In this document: piece after piece, positions 1 to 35,054 of the stretch
How the letters are laid out: each line of letters begins with the position of its first letter
Position numbering within the stretch: position 1 is the stretch's first letter
Sequence record: KP869113
Source: Escherichia coli O157 typing phage 15
Strand: one strand, 5' to 3'
DNA length: 64,000 nt
The notes under the pieces: model-generated
Seen by the model: the letters and a program-made list of their open reading frames with translations, nothing else
Database searches by the model: none
Told to the model about the DNA's origin: nothing
Translations under genes and position numbers: made by a program

Positions 1-299
1 TCTCTTCCTAATACATGGTAAGAGAAGTTATAAGCTTTGTTTCTCCAGAGCCATCCAACTCTCTGCATGTAGACACCAAGCTTACCAATCTTTCTAATCT
101 TAGCCCATCGTTTGATATGACCTGCATCACCATCAATTGGGTTGTCATAAGTCTCCATCCATCTGAACCCGAAAGGTAAGTGTCCTTTCTTCTCACTGTA
201 GAATGGAACTACAAAAGGTGCTAAGATAACTGCTAAGATTGCTGCAAATGGCTCTAACAAAGCTAAGAAAATCCATGAAGCATACTTTAAGTATCTCAT
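1..299 (-). CDS. Membrane protein, 3' end runs off window; same gene as 29027..29362
   Basis: ATG at 299..297; hand translation MRYLKYASWIFLALLEPFAAILAVILAPFVV... has an N-terminal hydrophobic helix; window 1-76 is identical to 29286-29362, where the frame continues into ORF 29027..29353. Confidence 0.45.
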   Translation of the reverse strand, partial: MRYLKYASWIFLALLEPFAAILAVILAPFVVPFYSEKKGHLPFGFRWMETYDNPIDGDAGHIKRWAKIRKIGKLGVYMQRVGWLWRNKAYNFSYHVLGR

Positions 300-4179: not shown

Positions 4180-6795
4180 TTAAGCAGTTCTTACCCAAGC
4201 CATTAACTTATAGAACTGGTTAGTAACACTAAATGCAGAACCAGAACCAGTACCACCTGTGTTACCGCTAACTGTGTGGCTGTGAGCACCAATATCAACA
4301 GTGTGGCTGTGGTTACCTGTTGTATTCGTTACACCAGACCAGTTTCTTGATGCGTTGAAGTTGACAGGGATACCATTAGTAAAGTTGTTACCAGTATACC
4401 CTTTAGAACCTGCCTGACTACCGAGGTAGAATGCACCACTTGCTGTGTAGAAGCTACTAGCGTCACTTCTGAAGTAACCAAATGAACCAGTAATCTCCAT
4501 AGTACCTCTGTTGTGGTTGTGGTTACCAGTTGTGCTAGAAGTCTTAGTACCATAGTCAAATGATGAAGTAGTAGCAGAGAAGCTGTGCGTGTGTGAAGGT
4601 AAGTTACCAACAGACAACGTTACAGAGTCTGAACCACCAGTTGTAGCAACATCTGAACCGTTTGCTGCTGCAATTCTAATAGTTCTACCAACACCATTAT
4701 TCAGGTACGTCCAAGTTAACCCAGGAAGTGCTGTGTTTGGGTTGACATTACTGTTAAACCACGTCACAATACCTACTGGATAGATTTTATTCAGGTCTGT
4801 AGAGTCACTAATTGCTTCTGCAATCTTCTGGTCAGTCTCTGCTTTAGTGTATGCACCAATATCTGAAGGGGTTGGTTTTTGCAAACTTGTGTAGTATTTT
4901 GCAATTGTACCCTTCACAATACCTTGTGGAGCATCATCAAATGTCTGTGGGACTTCAAACAACTGTACACTTGCATTACTAGAAGACTGAACCCTTGTCG
5001 TTGTGCTGTTTTGATACGTACCAGCAAGATAGTAAATATCATAGGTGTCTCCAGAAGTATTCACATAACCAATATCCCTGACAATGGTGTTCTCTGATGT
5101 TCTCCAAGCAACAACATTTAAGCCCTTTGGATTGTTATTTGAAGTTCGCAGAACAATTTCACATTTACCTGCTTGGTTTGGTGTATTAATATTAAAACCT
5201 GACCCACCAAATACCTCAATAACAGCAGTGGATGCTGATTGTGGCATCACAACAGTGGCAATTTTAGCCCACTTATCAGTGTTTCCCACATTGAAGCTAG
5301 TGCTTCTGATTCTTAGGTATCTACTATCACTAGCACTTTGCGTAAAGTATCTAGCATCTAAGTTAGAGAAATCTGAAGGTTGAACTTGTCCAGCAATAGT
5401 CAATGTTTTGTTAATGTATGATGTTGTATTCCCGAGAACCAATTGGGTTCCAGAATAACTGTTATTTAGGGTAACATCATTCGTGTCAGCACCACCAACA
5501 CCAATCCACCATCTTGATACATTAGTAGTGTCCACACCACGAATATATAATGGTCTATTCTGAGTAGAGTTTTTAACAATCAGACCTTCATTATCCGTAA
5601 CAACTGTCTGTACACCATTAAAAGTATTCCTTGCATTAGTTCTTGCAATCGTACTTAATGTTGCTACCGGAATATATCTAGAGTCAATGTTAGCCCAATC
5701 TGAAGGTTGGACTTGTCCAGTGATTTGCACAGTTTTATTGATACCAATAGTAGTACCTAGTGAAACCTGTGAACCTGTAAGGTAGTTATAAATGTTTAGA
5801 CGTGTCTCGTCAGAATCTGTACCAACATACCATTTATTTGTTCCATCAGACTTCTTACCGAGAATGTAAAGTGCTGTATTTGCATCAGTATTCTGCAAAG
5901 TAATGGCATTAGCATTCTTCTTAGCAACAAGGTTAGTGAAAGTGTTAGCACCTGTAAAAGTATTATTGCCAGCTAACTGTGCAAATCTCTGATTAGCTGC
6001 CGTCTGAGTAAAGTATCTAGCATCTAAGTTAGAGAAATCAGAAGGCTGAACTTGACCAGTGATTGCTAAAGACTTATTAACAGAGATATTACTTGCAACA
6101 GTCAAGACTGAGTTGTATTTGCTATTGTACAGCTTTACTTCGTCAGAGCCATTACTACCAATACCAACCCACCATCTAGCCGAACCATCTAGGTTTACAC
6201 CTTCAATATATTGTGCATTATTTGCATTTTGGTTTCTAAGGCGAAGTAAGTTAGCATCACCTTGAATGTTCTGAGTCCCAGAGAATGTGTTTGTGATAGC
6301 AAGTCTTGCATATCTTGCGTCATTCTCTTCATTAGTTCTCATACCAAGCTCATTAGGACTTGGCTTATTCAGAGTATGATAAACAGTTGCTGACCTTGAA
6401 GCATCTGCAATAGTTAGTTTAAGACCACTTGCGTTAAGTTTAAAAGTCTTTAAAACATCCCCAATAGTAATCTCAGAAGAACCTGTAGGGTCAAATACTG
6501 CCTTACCACCGTAAAGTAACTTGACAATACCTAAATCCCCCGTCATAGTGCTTCCAGCAATCTGAACAAACCTTTCTAGTTTGAAGGAAGCTAAGAAGTC
6601 TTGATAGGTCATTCTACGGTCTTCGTCACCCAACATTTCAGGTCTTTTCTTAACTCTGATGTGCAATAGGTCTTCTGAACGAATTGTGTCGATTGAGTTT
6701 AACTGACTCAATTTGTAATCTGCCATTATGAATTTTCCTCTTAAAAGGGGCTTTATAGCCCCTGTAAAGAAATTAAGCTGTTCTCTGCCACACAT
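4180..6795 (-). CDS. Long tail fibre protein (871 aa) with internal repeats and HxH tip
   Basis: Three about 100-aa repeats (NKxLxITGQVQPSDFSNLDARYFTQ); C-terminal HTHS/HSHT motifs (GNHSHTVDIGAHSHTV); C-terminus shared with the 6773..7948 protein. Confidence 0.7.
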   Translation of the reverse strand: MCGREQLNFFTGAIKPLLRGKFIMADYKLSQLNSIDTIRSEDLLHIRVKKRPEMLGDEDRRMTYQDFLASFKLERFVQIAGSTMTGDLGIVKLLYGGKAVFDPTGSSEITIGDVLKTFKLNASGLKLTIADASRSATVYHTLNKPSPNELGMRTNEENDARYARLAITNTFSGTQNIQGDANLLRLRNQNANNAQYIEGVNLDGSARWWVGIGSNGSDEVKLYNSKYNSVLTVASNISVNKSLAITGQVQPSDFSNLDARYFTQTAANQRFAQLAGNNTFTGANTFTNLVAKKNANAITLQNTDANTALYILGKKSDGTNKWYVGTDSDETRLNIYNYLTGSQVSLGTTIGINKTVQITGQVQPSDWANIDSRYIPVATLSTIARTNARNTFNGVQTVVTDNEGLIVKNSTQNRPLYIRGVDTTNVSRWWIGVGGADTNDVTLNNSYSGTQLVLGNTTSYINKTLTIAGQVQPSDFSNLDARYFTQSASDSRYLRIRSTSFNVGNTDKWAKIATVVMPQSASTAVIEVFGGSGFNINTPNQAGKCEIVLRTSNNNPKGLNVVAWRTSENTIVRDIGYVNTSGDTYDIYYLAGTYQNSTTTRVQSSSNASVQLFEVPQTFDDAPQGIVKGTIAKYYTSLQKPTPSDIGAYTKAETDQKIAEAISDSTDLNKIYPVGIVTWFNSNVNPNTALPGLTWTYLNNGVGRTIRIAAANGSDVATTGGSDSVTLSVGNLPSHTHSFSATTSSFDYGTKTSSTTGNHNHNRGTMEITGSFGYFRSDASSFYTASGAFYLGSQAGSKGYTGNNFTNGIPVNFNASRNWSGVTNTTGNHSHTVDIGAHSHTVSGNTGGTGSGSAFSVTNQFYKLMAWVRTA

Positions 6796-28591: not shown

Positions 28592-28667
28592 TGGTAGTCC
28601 AGTGGGATTTGAACCCTCTTCTCATGTTTTTCAGACACGCGCTTTAACCATATAAGCTACTTGGACT
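28592..28667 (-). tRNA. tRNA-Phe (anticodon GAA)
   Basis: T-arm GGGTTCAAATCCC, anticodon stem CGTGT/ACATG loop CTGAAAA. Confidence 0.6.
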
Positions 28668-28673
28668 ATAAAT

Positions 28674-28749
28674 TGGGGTGACCTACGGGATTTGAACCCG
28701 TATAGACCATGTTCACAGCATGGGTCATTACCATTTATGATAAGGCCAC
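28674..28749 (-). tRNA. tRNA-His (anticodon GUG)
   Basis: Acceptor GTGGCCT/AGGTCAC, T-arm ACGGGTTCAAATCCCGT, anticodon stem CCATG/CATGG loop CTGTGAA, CCA encoded. Confidence 0.65.
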
Positions 28750-29026: not shown

Positions 29027-29362
29027 TTACTTTCTTAGTGGATGAATAAAGAATGCCAACATAACTCTTTCCCTTGAAAATGCTCTTTCTTCTGGGACAA
29101 CACTTTTAAGTTTCCACCCAACATAAATTCTCCAGTAAAATTGTTTACCAAAGATTTTGATTGACGGCACAAAAGCGAATAATCCCCAAGCATTACTGTT
29201 CCACATTAGGAGATAACCAGTCTGATTATCTTCAGGGTTAGAACTTACGTTGATATTACCTTTCCACTTAGTAACATCTTTTACATCTCTTCCTAATACA
29301 TGGTAAGAGAAGTTATAAGCTTTGTTTCTCCAGAGCCATCCAACTCTCTGCATGTAGACACC
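29027..29362 (-). CDS. Membrane protein, 5' part lost in N gap (same gene as window 1..299)
   Basis: ORF 29027..29353 is the C-terminal part; 29286-29362 is identical to window 1-77. Confidence 0.45.
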   Translation of the reverse strand, partial: GVYMQRVGWLWRNKAYNFSYHVLGRDVKDVTKWKGNINVSSNPEDNQTGYLLMWNSNAWGLFAFVPSIKIFGKQFYWRIYVGWKLKSVVPEERAFSRERVMLAFFIHPLRK

Positions 29363-30082
29363 NNNNNNNNNNNNNNNNNNNNNNNNNNNNNNNNNNNNNN
29401 NNNNNNNNNNNNNNNNNNNNNNNNNNNNNNNNNNNNNNNNNNNNNNNNNNNNNNNNNNNNNNNNNNNNNNNNNNNNNNNNNNNNNNNNNNNNNNNNNNNN
29501 NNNNNNNNNNNNNNNNNNNNNNNNNNNNNNNNNNNNNNNNNNNNNNNNNNNNNNNNNNNNNNNNNNNNNNNNNNNNNNNNNNNNNNNNNNNNNNNNNNNN
29601 NNNNNNNNNNNNNNNNNNNNNNNNNNNNNNNNNNNNNNNNNNNNNNNNNNNNNNNNNNNNNNNNNNNNNNNNNNNNNNNNNNNNNNNNNNNNNNNNNNNN
29701 NNNNNNNNNNNNNNNNNNNNNNNNNNNNNNNNNNNNNNNNNNNNNNNNNNNNNNNNNNNNNNNNNNNNNNNNNNNNNNNNNNNNNNNNNNNNNNNNNNNN
29801 NNNNNNNNNNNNNNNNNNNNNNNNNNNNNNNNNNNNNNNNNNNNNNNNNNNNNNNNNNNNNNNNNNNNNNNNNNNNNNNNNNNNNNNNNNNNNNNNNNNN
29901 NNNNNNNNNNNNNNNNNNNNNNNNNNNNNNNNNNNNNNNNNNNNNNNNNNNNNNNNNNNNNNNNNNNNNNNNNNNNNNNNNNNNNNNNNNNNNNNNNNNN
30001 NNNNNNNNNNNNNNNNNNNNNNNNNNNNNNNNNNNNNNNNNNNNNNNNNNNNNNNNNNNNNNNNNNNNNNNNNNNNNNNNNN
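29363..30082. other. Assembly gap (720 N); true content is probably represented by window 77-721
   Basis: N run; flanks 29286-29362 and 30083-30160 match window 1-77 and 722-797. Confidence 0.9.
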
Positions 30083-30151
30083 CTCACTAAAGGACTTGAA
30101 CCTTTTTCTTCATCTTGTAAGGGTGATGTTTTACCATATAAACTAAGCGAG
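30083..30151 (-). tRNA. tRNA-Val (UAC), 3'-truncated duplicate of 716..790
   Basis: Identical to window 722-790; 3' end lies in the gap. Confidence 0.5.
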
Positions 30152-30248
30152 TATGAAAGAGGTCTGAAGTTGTGCCGCTAACTCAACTTCGTGGAATTTG
30201 TTACGGTCTTCAGTTGACTCAAAGCGGTCTTTCACTTGACCTCTGAAT

Positions 30249-30654: not shown

Positions 30655-30912
30655 ATTAAATCTTTTTAGAGAACTTCTAAGAACCTGAGCAACAAGGTTC
30701 CACAACAAGCGACTAATAACCTTAGAAGCCCTCTAAAAAGACCTAAATAGGTCTTTGCATAGTCTTGTTTAATCCGGTGACTAGAACCTTTGGAGAGCTT
30801 GATATTATCTCTTCTCCGTGACACCTACTAGGTGTTTTATCAGTGTGTACAACAATACACGCGGTATACCAAAGCAACATCCGAATGAAGCTTGGCTTTA
30901 AATCTTATTAGG
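30655..30912 (-). ncRNA. Structured spacer in tRNA array (candidate stable small RNA)
   Basis: 258 nt with no tRNA and no ORF of 60 aa or more; four local hairpins (GAACC..GGTTC, GACCT-AAAT-AGGTC, CACCT-ACT-AGGTG, GTGTA..TACAC). Confidence 0.3.
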
Positions 30913-31013: not shown

Positions 31014-31418
31014 CTAAATACTTAACAGTCCTGCATGAACTTTCCTATGACAGTTTGAGCAAAGCACAACACACTTACGAACTTCACGCTTAATAGTTCC
31101 CCTAGAGTAAGTCTTAAGATTGCTTGGAGCAAAATCTTTCTCTTTAGGGTCTAAGTGATGAAAATCTAAAGCTACTGGCTCGGATTCACCACATATTCTG
31201 CATTTGCAAAACTTTTTATATCTACTAAGGAACTCTCTGTTTCTCTTTTTGTCATATTTTGCTCTAACTTTCCTTTTTGCTTTATAAGTAGGGTCTTCTT
31301 TGTATCTCTTTGCTGAGTACTTAGCTTTACAATCTTTGCAAGCAGACTGATAGCCATTCCCTCTTTTATGAAAGCAACTTAAAGGCTTCTCTTGAGAACA
31401 TTTTCTACAAAGTTTCAT
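31014..31418 (-). CDS. HNH homing endonuclease inserted in the tRNA array
   Basis: N-terminal CxxC...CxxC zinc ribbon; C-terminal HNH motif DFHHLDP...LCSNCHRKVH; lies between tRNA-Ser and tRNA-Trp. Confidence 0.75.
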   Translation of the reverse strand: MKLCRKCSQEKPLSCFHKRGNGYQSACKDCKAKYSAKRYKEDPTYKAKRKVRAKYDKKRNREFLSRYKKFCKCRICGESEPVALDFHHLDPKEKDFAPSNLKTYSRGTIKREVRKCVVLCSNCHRKVHAGLLSI

Positions 31419-31728: not shown

Positions 31729-32003
31729 ATTAACATTTTAAAGGGTACTCATTGCATTTAAGCCAAGCCCCATAAGGGATACCCTTTAGAATGTTGCCCA
31801 CCTTATTAATCATACCGTGGGCTAGTACGCCAAATTCTTTGATGAGGGATTGGAAGACCTCACTGGTGTTTAGCCTATCAAGCTACTGCCAGAAAAACAT
31901 TGTCGTTTGCATTTATTTTAAATTTGCAAAATAGACGCTACGCAACGAAAACTAAGGTTACTATAAAGTAGTCACATCTCAATGTCAACAACTTTATTGA
32001 AAT
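31729..32003 (-). ncRNA. Structured 275-nt spacer in tRNA array (candidate small RNA and/or internal promoter)
   Basis: No tRNA, no long ORF; hairpins AAGGGTA..TACCCTT and TTTGCA..TGCAAA. Confidence 0.25.
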
Positions 32004-32311: not shown

Positions 32312-32317
32312 ATTAAA

Positions 32318-32457
32318 TTATCTTTGTAGATAAGCTACCCAGACTTGCTTAAGGTCTGTAGCGATGTGCCTTTTTGGGTTTAAATCTAGAATTTACCCTT
32401 TCACCCTTTGTGGTCGCATACTCACAGGTAAGCTTAATAACTTATCTACAAAGATAA
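32318..32457. repeat. 17-bp perfect inverted repeat (TTATCTTTGTAGATAAG / CTTATCTACAAAGATAA) enclosing a 106-nt core
   Basis: Arms at 32318-32334 and 32441-32457; core has no tRNA and no ORF. Confidence 0.6.
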
Positions 32458-32511
32458 TTACCAGACCGTTGTTTATCATCTTAAGTGCTACCATTACACC
32501 AACTCGACATC

Positions 32512-32536
32512 TGCCGAGTGAAGGAATCGAACCTTC
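32512..32536 (-). pseudogene. tRNA-like 3' fragment (T-arm plus acceptor 3' strand) with no identifiable 5' half
   Basis: Canonical T-arm GAAGGTTCGATTCCTTC followed by ACTCGGC, but no complementary acceptor strand, D-arm or anticodon arm upstream. Confidence 0.3.
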
Positions 32537-32740
32537 GCCTTTTCTTTACCGGAGAAATAGATTGTTTAAGTTTTGCTGTAAACGGTCTTCTGTAAATTTG
32601 TTGAGCCAGACCAAGTTTTAAATTTTTCAAAATTAAATTGGCTTGAAATTTTAAATAACTTGCTGTATTTGGTCTTCTGCTCCTTTAAAGAATACTCGTA
32701 AGAACCCTTTAAGGGAGGGGCTAAATAGCCCTCTCAAAAT

Positions 32741-32980: not shown

Positions 32981-33057
32981 TGGCGGTTAGTCAGGGATTC
33001 GAACCCTGTGCCATTCGCTTAACAGGCGACCGCACATACCTTATGTGCTTCCTAACC
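32981..33057 (-). tRNA. tRNA-Asn (anticodon GUU)
   Basis: D-stem GCAC/GTGC, anticodon loop CTGTTAA, T-arm CAGGGTTCGAATCCCTG, CCA. Confidence 0.65.
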
Positions 33058-33141
33058 ATGTTTAGTATTACCAGACCGTATATTTCAATTTTTTCCGCTA
33101 AAAATTTAATAAATATTGCTGTAAACGGTCTTCTGTAAATT
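33058..33141 (-). repeat. Inter-tRNA spacer hairpin element (ACCAGACCGT ... ACGGTCTTCTG family)
   Basis: Stem arms AGACCGT/ACGGTCT around an AT-rich loop; minus strand also reads TTTACAGAAGACC (-35-like). Confidence 0.5.
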
Positions 33142-33218
33142 TGGAGGCGGGTGCAGGAGTCGAACCTGCCGATACCATGCTAATGAGACATGTGAGACGC
33201 CCTTTCTCTATACCCGCA
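33142..33218 (-). tRNA. tRNA with anticodon CAU (Met / initiator / Ile2 candidate), non-canonical features
   Basis: T-arm GCAGGTTCGACTCCTGC, anticodon stem CATGT/GCATG loop CTCATTA, CCA encoded; position 1-72 apparently unpaired. Confidence 0.5.
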
Positions 33219-33308
33219 ATTCTTAATGACCAGACCAAATATCTTCTTTGTCCGATTAACTTTCAGATGAGTAGATTAAGTTTGCTGTAATTGGTCTTCT
33301 GTCAAAAC
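33219..33308 (-). repeat. Inter-tRNA spacer hairpin element, second copy with compensatory changes
   Basis: Arms AGACCAA/TTGGTCT replace AGACCGT/ACGGTCT of the first copy, preserving pairing; minus strand reads TTGACAGAAGACC. Confidence 0.5.
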
Positions 33309-33386
33309 TGGCGTTCCAGAAGGGATTTGAACCCTCAAATATCCACTTTGAAAGAGTGGTGACTTTACCATTTTGTCTACTGGAAC
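33309..33386 (-). tRNA. tRNA-Glu (anticodon UUC)
   Basis: Acceptor GTTCCAG/CTGGAAC, anticodon stem CCACT/AGTGG loop CTTTCAA, T-arm GAGGGTTCAAATCCCTT, CCA. Confidence 0.7.
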
Positions 33387-33489: not shown

Positions 33490-33560
33490 TTATGTAACCA
33501 CTTTAACATTATTTTTTAGTGGTTGTCAAGAACTTTTTTAAAATATTTTTCAGCATCTTA
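33490..33560 (-). promoter_or_regulatory. Putative sigma70-like promoter for the tRNA array
   Basis: Minus strand reads TTGACA-17 nt-TTAAAG just upstream of the first tRNA; the -10 is weak. Confidence 0.3.
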
Positions 33561-33597
33561 GAAAAGCTCTCATTTCGTTTCTATGTAGAACATATTA

Positions 33598-33635
33598 AAG
33601 GGTATTAAACACATTGTCAATACCCTTTTTAAAAC
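33598..33635. terminator. Hairpin terminator downstream of the vWA gene
   Basis: AAGGGTATT-12 nt-AATACCCTT followed by T-rich tract. Confidence 0.5.
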
Positions 33636-33638
33636 TTT

Positions 33639-35054
33639 TTACCAGATATAACGGTCAATCATTACTGCTTTGAGCATTACACTGATTGGGTCAAACTTCT
33701 CACCACCAAGCAGAGCTTTTAAAGTGGCTGGAGAGAACCCTGATACCATTGCTACACCGTTATCCTTAACAGATACTTCGCAAGTACCATTACGGTTTGC
33801 TAAGTACCAGAATACCAGTTGTGGCATCTCATATCCAGCTTTTTTGTACTTACTCTGAATTGCTTCAAAGTTTGTACGACCGTTAGCTCCATCAACCTGA
33901 TTAAACTCCATATCGGAGAAGATGATAAGCTTACTTGGCATATCTTTCTGAGTCAAGTTGTTTCTTTTACCTGTTTCAAGAATGCGGTCAAAAGCTGCTT
34001 GTAAGTTAGTTGAGCCATATTCAACGTGTCGCATCACCTGACGATGACGGTTTCGTAAATCACCACTCAGTTCGATGAAGTGAGGGTTTGTTGAATAAAC
34101 CATCAACTCATTCTTAAAGCAACCTGTATTGCGTTCTGCTACATACAAGGCAAGTGATACACCAATATCCAGAGCAGTAATGGAGCCAAAATTCACCCAA
34201 GACATTGAACTTGATACATCAGACATACACAAGATGTTTTCACCTTCTGCCATCCAGTTTGGTAGTGCTTTCCACTGCTCATTAGCAACATCTGCATTAC
34301 CATACTTGACAGATTTAATCACATCGTATGGGTAAACAGCACCAGCGTTAATCTTAGTCTCACCTTTTGATAAGGACTCGATGTAAGCTTTGTAACGCTC
34401 TCCATCTTTACGGTTAAACAGTTTTTGGTAACGTGCAGCAGCAAGTGAAGGAATCTTACTGTAGTCAATCTTACCAAACTCATTAGCAGAGATTTTTTGC
34501 TCAACTGTATCAGATAGTGCAGACAACAGTGTGCGGTACTCTTTCTCACTCAAGTTGGCAAACTTGCAGAAACGTTTTACAAACTGCTTATGACGTGGTT
34601 TGACTCGTGGTAACCACTTAGCCGCCAAACCTGCTGTTGCAGGGTCTAGTAATGCTGCTTCTAAATGTTTGAAGGCATCTGTCTCGAAACGAGTACCTAC
34701 GAAGATTTTGAAGTCATCAAAACGACCAAGTTCTGCAATCTTATCCATAATGCGAAGAACCTGCGTAGACTCTAAAACTTTGTCTTCAATCGCTTGAAGT
34801 AAAACAGCTCTGAAGGCTTTACGCTCACCCATACCTTCTCGTACATCTCGCATATGCAGTAAAATACGAACTGCAACATCAACATCCTCACGCAAAGCTT
34901 TGTAGAACAGGTCTGGTAAGATTTCTACATTGCTACGGCTTGAACCAGCAGCTTTGTAAAAGTCTACAAGAGCAGACATTGATGAAGTATGGTTTACAGC
35001 ACCATTTTCAGTTCGACCTGCATGAAGGTGCGCATGTTTAAATAACTCGCTCAT
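33639..35054 (-). CDS. vWA-domain protein with MIDAS motif and about 270-aa helical N-terminal domain (possibly Ro60/TROVE-like)
   Basis: C-terminal half has DxSxS MIDAS motif (MSDVSSSM) followed by hydrophobic strand typical of vWA fold; N-terminal half is helix-rich; immediately upstream of the tRNA array on the same strand. Confidence 0.55.
   Translation of the reverse strand: MSELFKHAHLHAGRTENGAVNHTSSMSALVDFYKAAGSSRSNVEILPDLFYKALREDVDVAVRILLHMRDVREGMGERKAFRAVLLQAIEDKVLESTQVLRIMDKIAELGRFDDFKIFVGTRFETDAFKHLEAALLDPATAGLAAKWLPRVKPRHKQFVKRFCKFANLSEKEYRTLLSALSDTVEQKISANEFGKIDYSKIPSLAAARYQKLFNRKDGERYKAYIESLSKGETKINAGAVYPYDVIKSVKYGNADVANEQWKALPNWMAEGENILCMSDVSSSMSWVNFGSITALDIGVSLALYVAERNTGCFKNELMVYSTNPHFIELSGDLRNRHRQVMRHVEYGSTNLQAAFDRILETGKRNNLTQKDMPSKLIIFSDMEFNQVDGANGRTNFEAIQSKYKKAGYEMPQLVFWYLANRNGTCEVSVKDNGVAMVSGFSPATLKALLGGEKFDPISVMLKAVMIDRYIW

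Follow-up and report, generated by a model that had tools for sequence, protein, structure and literature searches.

The window considered here, i.e., the whole 64-kb stretch of phage DNA that was analysed, is placed among the Felix O1-like phages (Felixounavirus) by 99% identity to vB_EcoM_LMP34 and by 312 matching phage records (megablast). It carries 28 tRNA genes, in every case on the minus strand (ARAGORN), a gene encoding a 471-aa Ro60-like protein and, within the tRNA array, four repeated elements named A to D (Table 1). The elements sit 335-1181 nt downstream of the stop codon of the Ro60-like gene, on the same strand. The CCA of the upstream tRNA is separated from the element by 4 nt (D) or 3 nt (C), and 8-10 nt lie between the element and the next tRNA. 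The tandem sigma-70-like promoters at 33500..33620 (minus strand) are likely the start of the transcript bearing both the tRNAs and the four elements. The scaffold contains runs of N at 798-897, 1426-1525, 1908-2007, 2734-2833, and 29363-30082, none of them within 2 kb of the elements. As a separate observation, the piece 1-797 overlaps both edges of the 720-N gap with 77 identical bases each (1-77 = 29286-29362; 721-797 = 30083-30159); this puts the tRNA-Arg/Leu/Val genes at 556-790 within the main array and means that tRNA-Val(UAC) enters the count twice.

Table 1. Features of the Ro60-like gene and tRNA region in the window; paired positions are given as 5' strand/3' strand of the minus-strand RNA.
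Feature	Position	Strand	Basis and remarks
Ro60-like protein gene, 471 aa	33639..35054	minus	directly upstream of the tRNA/Y-like RNA array, same strand; presumed protein partner
Sigma-70-like promoter TTGACA-17-TAATAT	33620-33592	minus	promoter scan, direct repeat D7; between Ro60-like gene and tRNA-Pro
Sigma-70-like promoter TTGACA-18-TAAAGT with TG	33529-33500	minus	promoter scan, direct repeat D7; between Ro60-like gene and tRNA-Pro
tRNA-Glu	33309-33386	minus	ARAGORN; flanks element D
Element D, candidate short Y-like RNA	33227..33304	minus	between tRNA-Glu and tRNA-Met; fold; covariance model R1 44.9 bits, E 4.9e-8
Element D, outer helix UGAC/GUCA; loop AGA; unpaired G	33301-33304/33227-33230; 33298-33300; 33231	minus	
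Element D, inner helix AGACCAA/UUGGUCU; box UUACAGCAA	33291-33297/33232-33238; 33282-33290	minus	
tRNA-Met	33142-33218	minus	ARAGORN; between elements D and C
Element C, candidate short Y-like RNA	33068..33138	minus	between tRNA-Met and tRNA-Asn; fold; R1 53.1 bits
Element C, outer helix UUAC/GUAA; loop AGA; unpaired G	33135-33138/33068-33071; 33132-33134; 33072	minus	
Element C, inner helix AGACCGU/ACGGUCU; box UUACAGCAA	33125-33131/33073-33079; 33116-33124	minus	
tRNA-Asn	32981-33057	minus	ARAGORN; flanks element C
Element B, candidate short Y-like RNA	32603..32682	minus	fold; R1 52.3 bits
Element B, outer helix GAGC/GCUC; loop AGA; unpaired G	32679-32682/32603-32606; 32676-32678; 32607	minus	
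Element B, inner helix AGACCAA/UUGGUCU; box AUACAGCAA	32669-32675/32608-32614; 32660-32668	minus	
Element A, candidate long YrlA-like RNA, handle enclosing a tRNA mimic	32458..32595	minus	fold; R1 35.7 bits, E 7e-6
Element A, handle: outer helix; inner helix; box	32592-32595/32458-32461; 32582-32588/32463-32469; 32573-32581	minus	
Element A, V hairpin	32541-32557	minus	fold
Element A, T arm GAAGG-UUCGAUU-CCUUC, canonical	32520-32536	minus	fold
Element A, acceptor-like stem, 7 bp, closed by AGAU tetraloop	32502-32519	minus	fold
Element A, D arm GUGU-AAUGGUA-GCAC, canonical	32485-32499	minus	fold

The first-pass annotation described repeated hairpin elements in the inter-tRNA spacers, and these are real: the motif CAGAAGACCnnnTACAGCAA occurs exactly four times in the window, on the minus strand only, where 0.24 copies are expected by chance. 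The longer pattern AGAAGACC-N30-60-GGTCTGG is matched by three of the four copies, with none expected. The 3' arm of the fourth, element A, had been missed; it is located ~110 nt off at 32463-32469. Folds of the minus-strand RNA reveal a common architecture, in which an AGA/G internal loop joins an outer helix of 4 bp to an inner one of 7 bp, and the interior of elements B, C, and D is a short A/U-rich hairpin. The length from AG to CUG is 60-69 nt in C, D, and B and 127 nt in A. A covariance model (R1) trained on 24 short copies, with element A outside the training set, finds in the window only the four elements, A included, at 35.7-53.1 bits, the next best match scoring 14.7. A strict pattern for the ends of the elements, termed here the handle (AG-N5-N2-4-CAGCAA ... 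N5'(pairing)-CUG), additionally matches positions 46-255 (minus strand, ~210 nt) inside coding-looking sequence; this match is taken as chance, with 0.1 expected per window from shuffles (128 kb, both strands). Searches against Rfam at permissive thresholds returned no riboswitch, ribozyme, or known phage RNA, only partial tRNA and weak Dicty_Class_I matches, and a promoter and terminator scan of the elements was negative apart from a weak promoter call in C.

For the arms enclosed by the handle of element A, 12 distinct orthologues were compared. No variation is seen in the T and D arms and the first (V) hairpin is mostly kept (88%), while the acceptor-like stem occurs in three versions (ACUCGGC/GUCGAGU, ACACGU/GCGUGU, and ACCCUUC/GAAGGGU), with three covarying pairs and 98.8% of cells paired. 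A helix standing in for the anticodon stem is unsupported in the same orthologues (79% paired, no covariation). The Rfam tRNA model matches element A partially, at 22 bits versus a cut-off of 29, and ARAGORN calls no tRNA in 32458-32595. A functional circularly permuted tRNA gene was considered and rejected, since CCA is missing, a loop of 4-8 nt closes the acceptor stem, and the substitute for the anticodon stem is unsupported; element A thus shows neither the open acceptor ends and anticodon arm of a tRNA gene nor recognition by a tRNA finder.

The search of related phage tRNA arrays proposed with the first description of the elements yielded 66 distinct copies from Ounavirinae phages. In 30 of the 66 the inner helix reads AGACCAA/UUGGUCU and in another 30 AGACCGU/ACGGUCU, which bears out the compensation between GT/AC and AA/TT reported previously. 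Five inner-helix variants pair only as G.U on minus-strand RNA, and one would pair only on the plus-strand transcript. The outer helix covaries as well (UUAC/GUAA in 26 copies, UGAC/GUCA in 14, GAGC/GCUC in 14, UUGC/GCAA in 7, GGAGC/GUUCC in 3, and GGGC/GCUC in 2). Motif counts, minus-strand folds, and compensation in both helices thus confirm the initial observation and place the structure on the transcribed strand. Selection on RNA secondary structure, suggested from two pairs of arms in the window, is strongly supported by the covariation of the inner and outer helices and of element A. Across Felixounavirus and Mooglevirus the copies occupy fixed syntenic positions in a single orientation. 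Small "hypothetical protein" ORFs are annotated over elements in LMP34 (L001, 3094-3195 and 3266-3439) and in Campylobacter phage CP81 (ORF140; L123, 3903-4040). They were rejected as coding on the basis of 1-2-nt indels and compensatory changes among orthologues; these deposited ORFs are probably spurious, and genome annotations would accordingly carry false small genes over handle RNAs. One rearranged locus was also observed (L013, ~5543-5650; IMGVR_UViG_2706796742_000001), in which the 5' half of element A passes via the T arm into the 3' end of tRNA-Lys(UUU). This junction is a deletion that arose by recombination between the T arms of element A and tRNA-Lys(UUU).

In the 471-aa protein, helical repeats make up the N-terminal part; the vWA domain after it carries the MIDAS motif D279-x-S281-x-S283, and this DxSxS motif is invariant. 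The ORF matches Pfam DUF7788 and DUF2828 as well as PHROG 850 "RNA-binding protein"; Pfam TROVE is not matched. DUF2828 is a Pfam family with eukaryotic members as well. Sequence-level searches miss Ro60, and a profile search of PDB sequences reaches it only at E 0.77. An AlphaFold2 model built with 41 homologues as input (mean pLDDT 89.7) was compared with the PDB by Foldseek, and the best 11 matches are all Ro60/TROVE proteins aligned over the full length (E 7e-8 to 3e-6); judging from this predicted structure, the resemblance to Ro60 is visible at the fold level only. Homologues are encoded in at least 709 deposited phage genomes, from phages infecting Escherichia, Salmonella, Vibrio, Campylobacter, Listeria, Staphylococcus, Enterococcus, Bacillus, and Mycobacterium, and some mycobacteriophage homologues are annotated "Ro-like RNA binding protein". 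For Bas63, another Felix O1-like phage, a preprint describes gp130 as Ro60-like and as countering the Ppl defence system; its gene lies directly upstream of tRNA genes, and the authors only speculated that some annotated tRNAs might be Y RNAs (10.1101/2024.10.10.617714). We equate gp130 with the ORF at 33639-35054 by that description. A literature search of limited coverage found no publication identifying the RNAs of this protein, and the RNA partners of the phage Ro60-like protein had previously only been guessed at.

The association between gene and handle extends to distant phages. Seventy-five loci encoding a homologue with 38-47% identity (851 kb) were scanned on both strands. The strict handle pattern gave 64 matches on the gene strand and 0 on the opposite one; it is present in 39 of the 75 loci, at a median of 265 nt from the gene and about equally often upstream and downstream, and looser handle variants exist as well. 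R1 gave 45 matches at E<=0.01, on the gene strand only. When pairing was not presupposed and the box alone was searched for (AG-N5-N3-CAGCAA), 85 matches were found on the gene strand versus 10 on the opposite strand, and 62 of the 85 are followed within 230 nt by a perfectly pairing 5-mer and CUG, with 4.9 expected from permuted 5-mers. An alignment of all copies with a covariation check had been recommended by the first-pass annotation. Pairing holds in 99% of the cells of the handle alignment, both bases vary at six of the seven pairs, with as many as five pair types, and the covariation score is 0.849 compared with 0.187 in shuffles and at most 0.172 in controls with a slid partner; the alignment behind this score was partly picked by a model that rewards pairing, while the strand asymmetry and the motif-only test are free of such selection. 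The conserved positions of the handle are the closing A-U (~86%), an invariant G-C, U-W-CAGCAA, and CUG; across the phage family the 5' G of the stem is found in 42/42, the paired C in 42/43, and the 3' G in 42/42.

Individual loci illustrate this arrangement. R1 finds three handle copies just upstream of the gene in Listeria phage LP-083-2, one beside the gene in Campylobacter phage CP81 (under the annotated small ORF), two just downstream of the "Ro-like RNA binding protein" gene in mycobacteriophage BigCheese, and the handle beside the gene in Vibrio phage phi-ST2, in each case on the gene strand; BigCheese and phi-ST2 have no annotated tRNA gene in the stretch examined. What the handle encloses, its cargo, is modular. 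Interiors range from ~15 nt to >200 nt across phages and comprise a T arm only, a full set of T arm, closed stem, and D arm with unrelated stem sequences, or recurring larger domains. In ten distant loci, Rfam at gathering thresholds returned only tRNA, tmRNA, and a group I intron. Several single cases were noted alongside these results. At L117 8519-8616 and L083 5733-5834 the handle seems to enclose a complete non-permuted tRNA (Rfam 55.2 and 52.9 bits), so that, provided the 3' partner is correctly assigned, the cargo could comprise an entire tRNA body in some cases and a permuted mimic in others. A larger cargo module ending in ...GAACCUUUCUGGAGGGGAAAGCAAAAACUCGCCAAAA recurs inside handles of unrelated phages (L048 3132, L050 148, L051 1264, L053 1419, and L064 5733) and looks like a distinct conserved domain. 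In LP-083-2 (L122, 3619-8026), three handle RNAs, the Ro-like gene, tRNA genes, and a gene for an RtcB-like RNA ligase lie within ~5 kb, an arrangement that echoes the bacterial rsr-yrlBA-rtcBA. Mycobacteriophage LeBron encodes a Ro-like protein together with an RNA ligase and a polynucleotide kinase (PMC13148394).

Several features of the window RNAs recall bacterial Y RNAs. In YrlA (Rfam RF02553) a variable hairpin, a T arm, a closed acceptor-like stem, and a D arm follow one another within a terminal stem, and true Y RNAs are searched for within 4 kb of the Ro60 gene on the same strand (Chen et al., 2014; PMC4201824); a phage example is the Ro60-Yrl1/2 particle of Thermus phage phiLo (PMC12135203). 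As in those systems, the window RNAs adjoin a Ro60-fold gene on the same strand (335-1181 nt, within ~4 kb), their 5' and 3' ends pair into a terminal stem with conserved sequence according to folds and covariation, and a single locus holds several RNAs, one long and several short, as with YrlA and YrlB. Element A has the order V - T - closed acceptor-like stem - D with canonical T and D loops, like YrlA, and elements B, C, and D have no tRNA-like module, like YrlB. There are also clear differences. The canonical Ro-binding motif is GNCGAAN0-1G, with CGAA in the 5' strand (PMC4201824); it is absent from the elements, where the conserved 5' sequence is AG-N5-NUW-CAGCAA, and the motif conserved in the RNAs, AG...UWCAGCAA...CUG, stands in place of GNCGAA(N)G. 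The presumed partner protein belongs to the DUF2828/DUF7788 family and not to Pfam TROVE, and, unlike YrlA, the window RNAs are embedded in a tRNA array and their cargo modules are far more varied. The Rfam model of YrlA (gathering score 69 bits) does not match elements A-D even at E<=10. Its sole match in the window covers tRNA-Phe/tRNA-His at 28606-28728 (17.3 bits, E 9.8), and three long handle-bearing forms in other phages score 38.9 bits (E 5e-5), 39.2, and 28.7, below the cut-off of 69. Lacking a CGAA-type motif, a Pfam TROVE match, and an Rfam score in the window, the system is set apart from canonical Y RNA/YrlA. Another comparison is offered by T4 "species 1 and 2" (RNA C and D), which are small, stable, and of no known function and are transcribed as part of the T4 tRNA precursor and then cut out of it; the window RNAs likewise lie in a phage tRNA cluster. 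We know of no Ro60-like partner of the T4 RNAs and of no sequence or handle that they share with the elements.

It is proposed that the four elements are Y-RNA-type small non-coding RNAs, co-transcribed with the tRNAs and freed by tRNA processing, in which the handle docks on the Ro60-like ring protein and the cargo does the work; we would assign this reading a probability of roughly 0.7. We infer that transcription together with the tRNAs would start from the promoters at 33500-33620, and that each element would be released by RNase P cleavage at the 5' end of the next tRNA and by trimming behind the CCA of the previous one. The handle that would be presented to the protein (33639-35054) consists of the paired 5' and 3' ends, i.e., a 7-bp helix with a nearly invariant outermost A-U and an invariant G-C, a single-stranded U-W-CAGCAA box after the helix on the 5' strand, and an unpaired G after it on the 3' side; to this the Felix O1-like phages add the 4-bp outer helix and the AGA/G internal loop. 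The variable interior would then serve as the working module, a tRNA mimic in A, where it would present a tRNA elbow, and the short A/U-rich hairpin in B, C, and D. Such a complex might tether or sequester host RNA-handling enzymes or defence factors, as an analogy to Ro60-Y RNA particles suggests. The docking and recruitment steps are modelled on Ro60-Y RNA-PNPase particles, on the Ro60 of phage phiLo, and on the counter-defence phenotype of Bas63. A precise and searchable handle provides concrete candidates for binding, structural, and knockout work.

The handle also resembles a class of eukaryotic RNAs. Dicty_Class_I_RNA (RF01414) is the only Rfam family that repeatedly touches the short elements (21.1 bits for C and 16.6 for B, against a threshold of 41.5), and the columns aligned to it are exactly the conserved ones. 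Class I RNAs start with AAG, are ~60 nt long (range 42-65 nt), and have a 6-bp stem with an invariant G paired to the C of a 3' CUGU; the 11-nt box CCUUACAGCAA directly follows the stem on its 5' strand, and the interior varies (PMC7919456). Similarly, the window copies read AAG-ACCnn...nnGGU-CUGG, with the 5' G paired to the C of CUG, and have (G/A)(U/A)UUACAGCAA or AAAUACAGCAA at the place of the box, matching it at 8-9 of 11 positions; positions C6, C9, A10, and A11, which hardly vary among Class I RNAs, hardly vary in the phage family either. The strict pattern derived from phages is satisfied by 78 of 128 curated Class I sequences from six dictyostelids (Kjellin et al., 2021, supplement; PMC7919456). 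Canonical tRNA T arms occur in 3 of the 128, from three species (0.03 expected from shuffles), namely asu_can_20, which also has a closed hairpin after it, ppa_can_99, and DpuR-22, and a subset (DdR-66/67 and DpuR-27 to 30) shares a larger module, GGUGUAGAAUAGGUGGGAG...GUGAAAUACCACC. These T arms and the larger shared module mirror the modular cargo of the phage family. However, Class I RNAs are eukaryotic, each with its own DUSE promoter ~60 nt upstream, and are reportedly unique to Dictyostelia (PMC7919456), whereas the copies in the window are part of a phage tRNA operon. A peptide search of the partial Dictyostelium proteome from the Kjellin supplement matched only an unrelated vWA protein. 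It is possible, and we suggest it tentatively, that the phage RNAs and the dictyostelid Class I RNAs form one ancient family sharing an AG-stem-UWCAGCAA...stem-CUG handle, with the DUF2828 branch of Ro60-like proteins as its natural partner; this common descent, or a partner in common, is put forward as a hypothesis, since the direct binder known for Class I RNA is an RRM protein. If this holds, the orphan Class I RNAs, so far regarded as exclusive to social amoebae, would be the Y RNAs of these organisms, with the phage system as a simple model of their function, and the phage family would represent a modular "handle plus cargo" platform showing tRNA mimics or other RNA modules to host enzymes or defence systems. 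The handle match makes the role and binding of the abundant Class I RNAs, a long-open question, directly testable.

Since an RRM protein reportedly binds the Dictyostelium look-alikes, a protein of another kind could read the handle. On that account the handle is a real signal for some other factor, be it an RNA-binding protein of host or phage or an enzyme of RNA repair or ligation, and its linkage to the Ro60-like gene would reflect a shared pathway and not direct binding. [quoted passage not shown] Against this, the tight, strand-specific adjacency to the Ro60-like gene holds in unrelated phages, also where no RNA-repair gene is annotated nearby, and parallels the rule by which true Y RNAs are searched for; we consider a different reader unlikely. 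The explanation of the elements as punctuation or processing hairpins of the polycistronic tRNA precursor, guiding RNase E, III, or P or blocking 3' exonucleases and having no life after cleavage, was among those first offered. Elements located 3-10 nt from tRNA ends, and the many protein relatives encoded in tRNA-rich regions, are what it would lead one to expect. It does not explain why the single-stranded CAGCAA box and the closing pairs stay constant when helix sequences are free to vary, why the handle is found beside the Ro60-like gene in BigCheese and phi-ST2, with no tRNA gene annotated in the stretch examined, why most tRNA junctions of the array are without such an element, or why element A is an elaborate conserved tRNA mimic, and such a role alone appears rather improbable.

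The third possibility, which regards the elements as tRNA genes in decay, scars of recombination, or small mobile cassettes by which tRNA genes are shuffled, can draw on the T- and D-arm sequences within element A, on the L013 deletion fusing its T arm to that of tRNA-Lys, and on cargo modules that vary between phages. The mobile-cassette function envisaged originally is nevertheless a poor explanation, as positions and orientation are fixed across Felixounavirus and Mooglevirus, the four copies share one orientation within one 850-nt stretch with none dispersed elsewhere in the 64-kb window, and compensatory changes maintain the helices, that of the closed acceptor-like stem included; this origin is held to be very improbable. 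The weakest account, internal sigma-70 promoters with TT(G/T)ACA as -35, is scarcely credible, for although TTGACA is found in D and TTTACA in A and C, as claimed, and C scores 9/12 in the sigma-70 scan, B has GGAGCA, no -10 is conserved, the region holds 3 sites versus 3.0 expected with C the only element called, and weakly, the hexamer is the 5' strand of a helix whose bases covary with the 3' partner and is missing from the wider family, and strong promoters already lie upstream of the array (33620-33592 and 33529-33500).

Besides the Y-RNA-type elements proposed here, the array contains other potential structures. Long inverted repeats with 16-26-nt arms are present in other tRNA spacers (30656-30746, 31732-31795, and 31124-31267), and the CAGCAA handle is absent from these three. 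A G+C-rich hairpin, GAGAGGGCUAUUUAGCCCCUCCC, at 32695-32735 (minus strand) closely follows tRNA-Asp and precedes element B; it is conserved in Shigella phage Sf18 and, having no U tract, is no typical terminator. Adjoining element A, a 148-nt hairpin (32314-32461, minus strand) with a near-perfect 22-bp closing stem (-48.3 kcal/mol, z -6.3) has no match in Rfam, and it probably represents a further structured RNA or a site for RNase III, as both arms are changed and yet complementary in Sf18 (L038).
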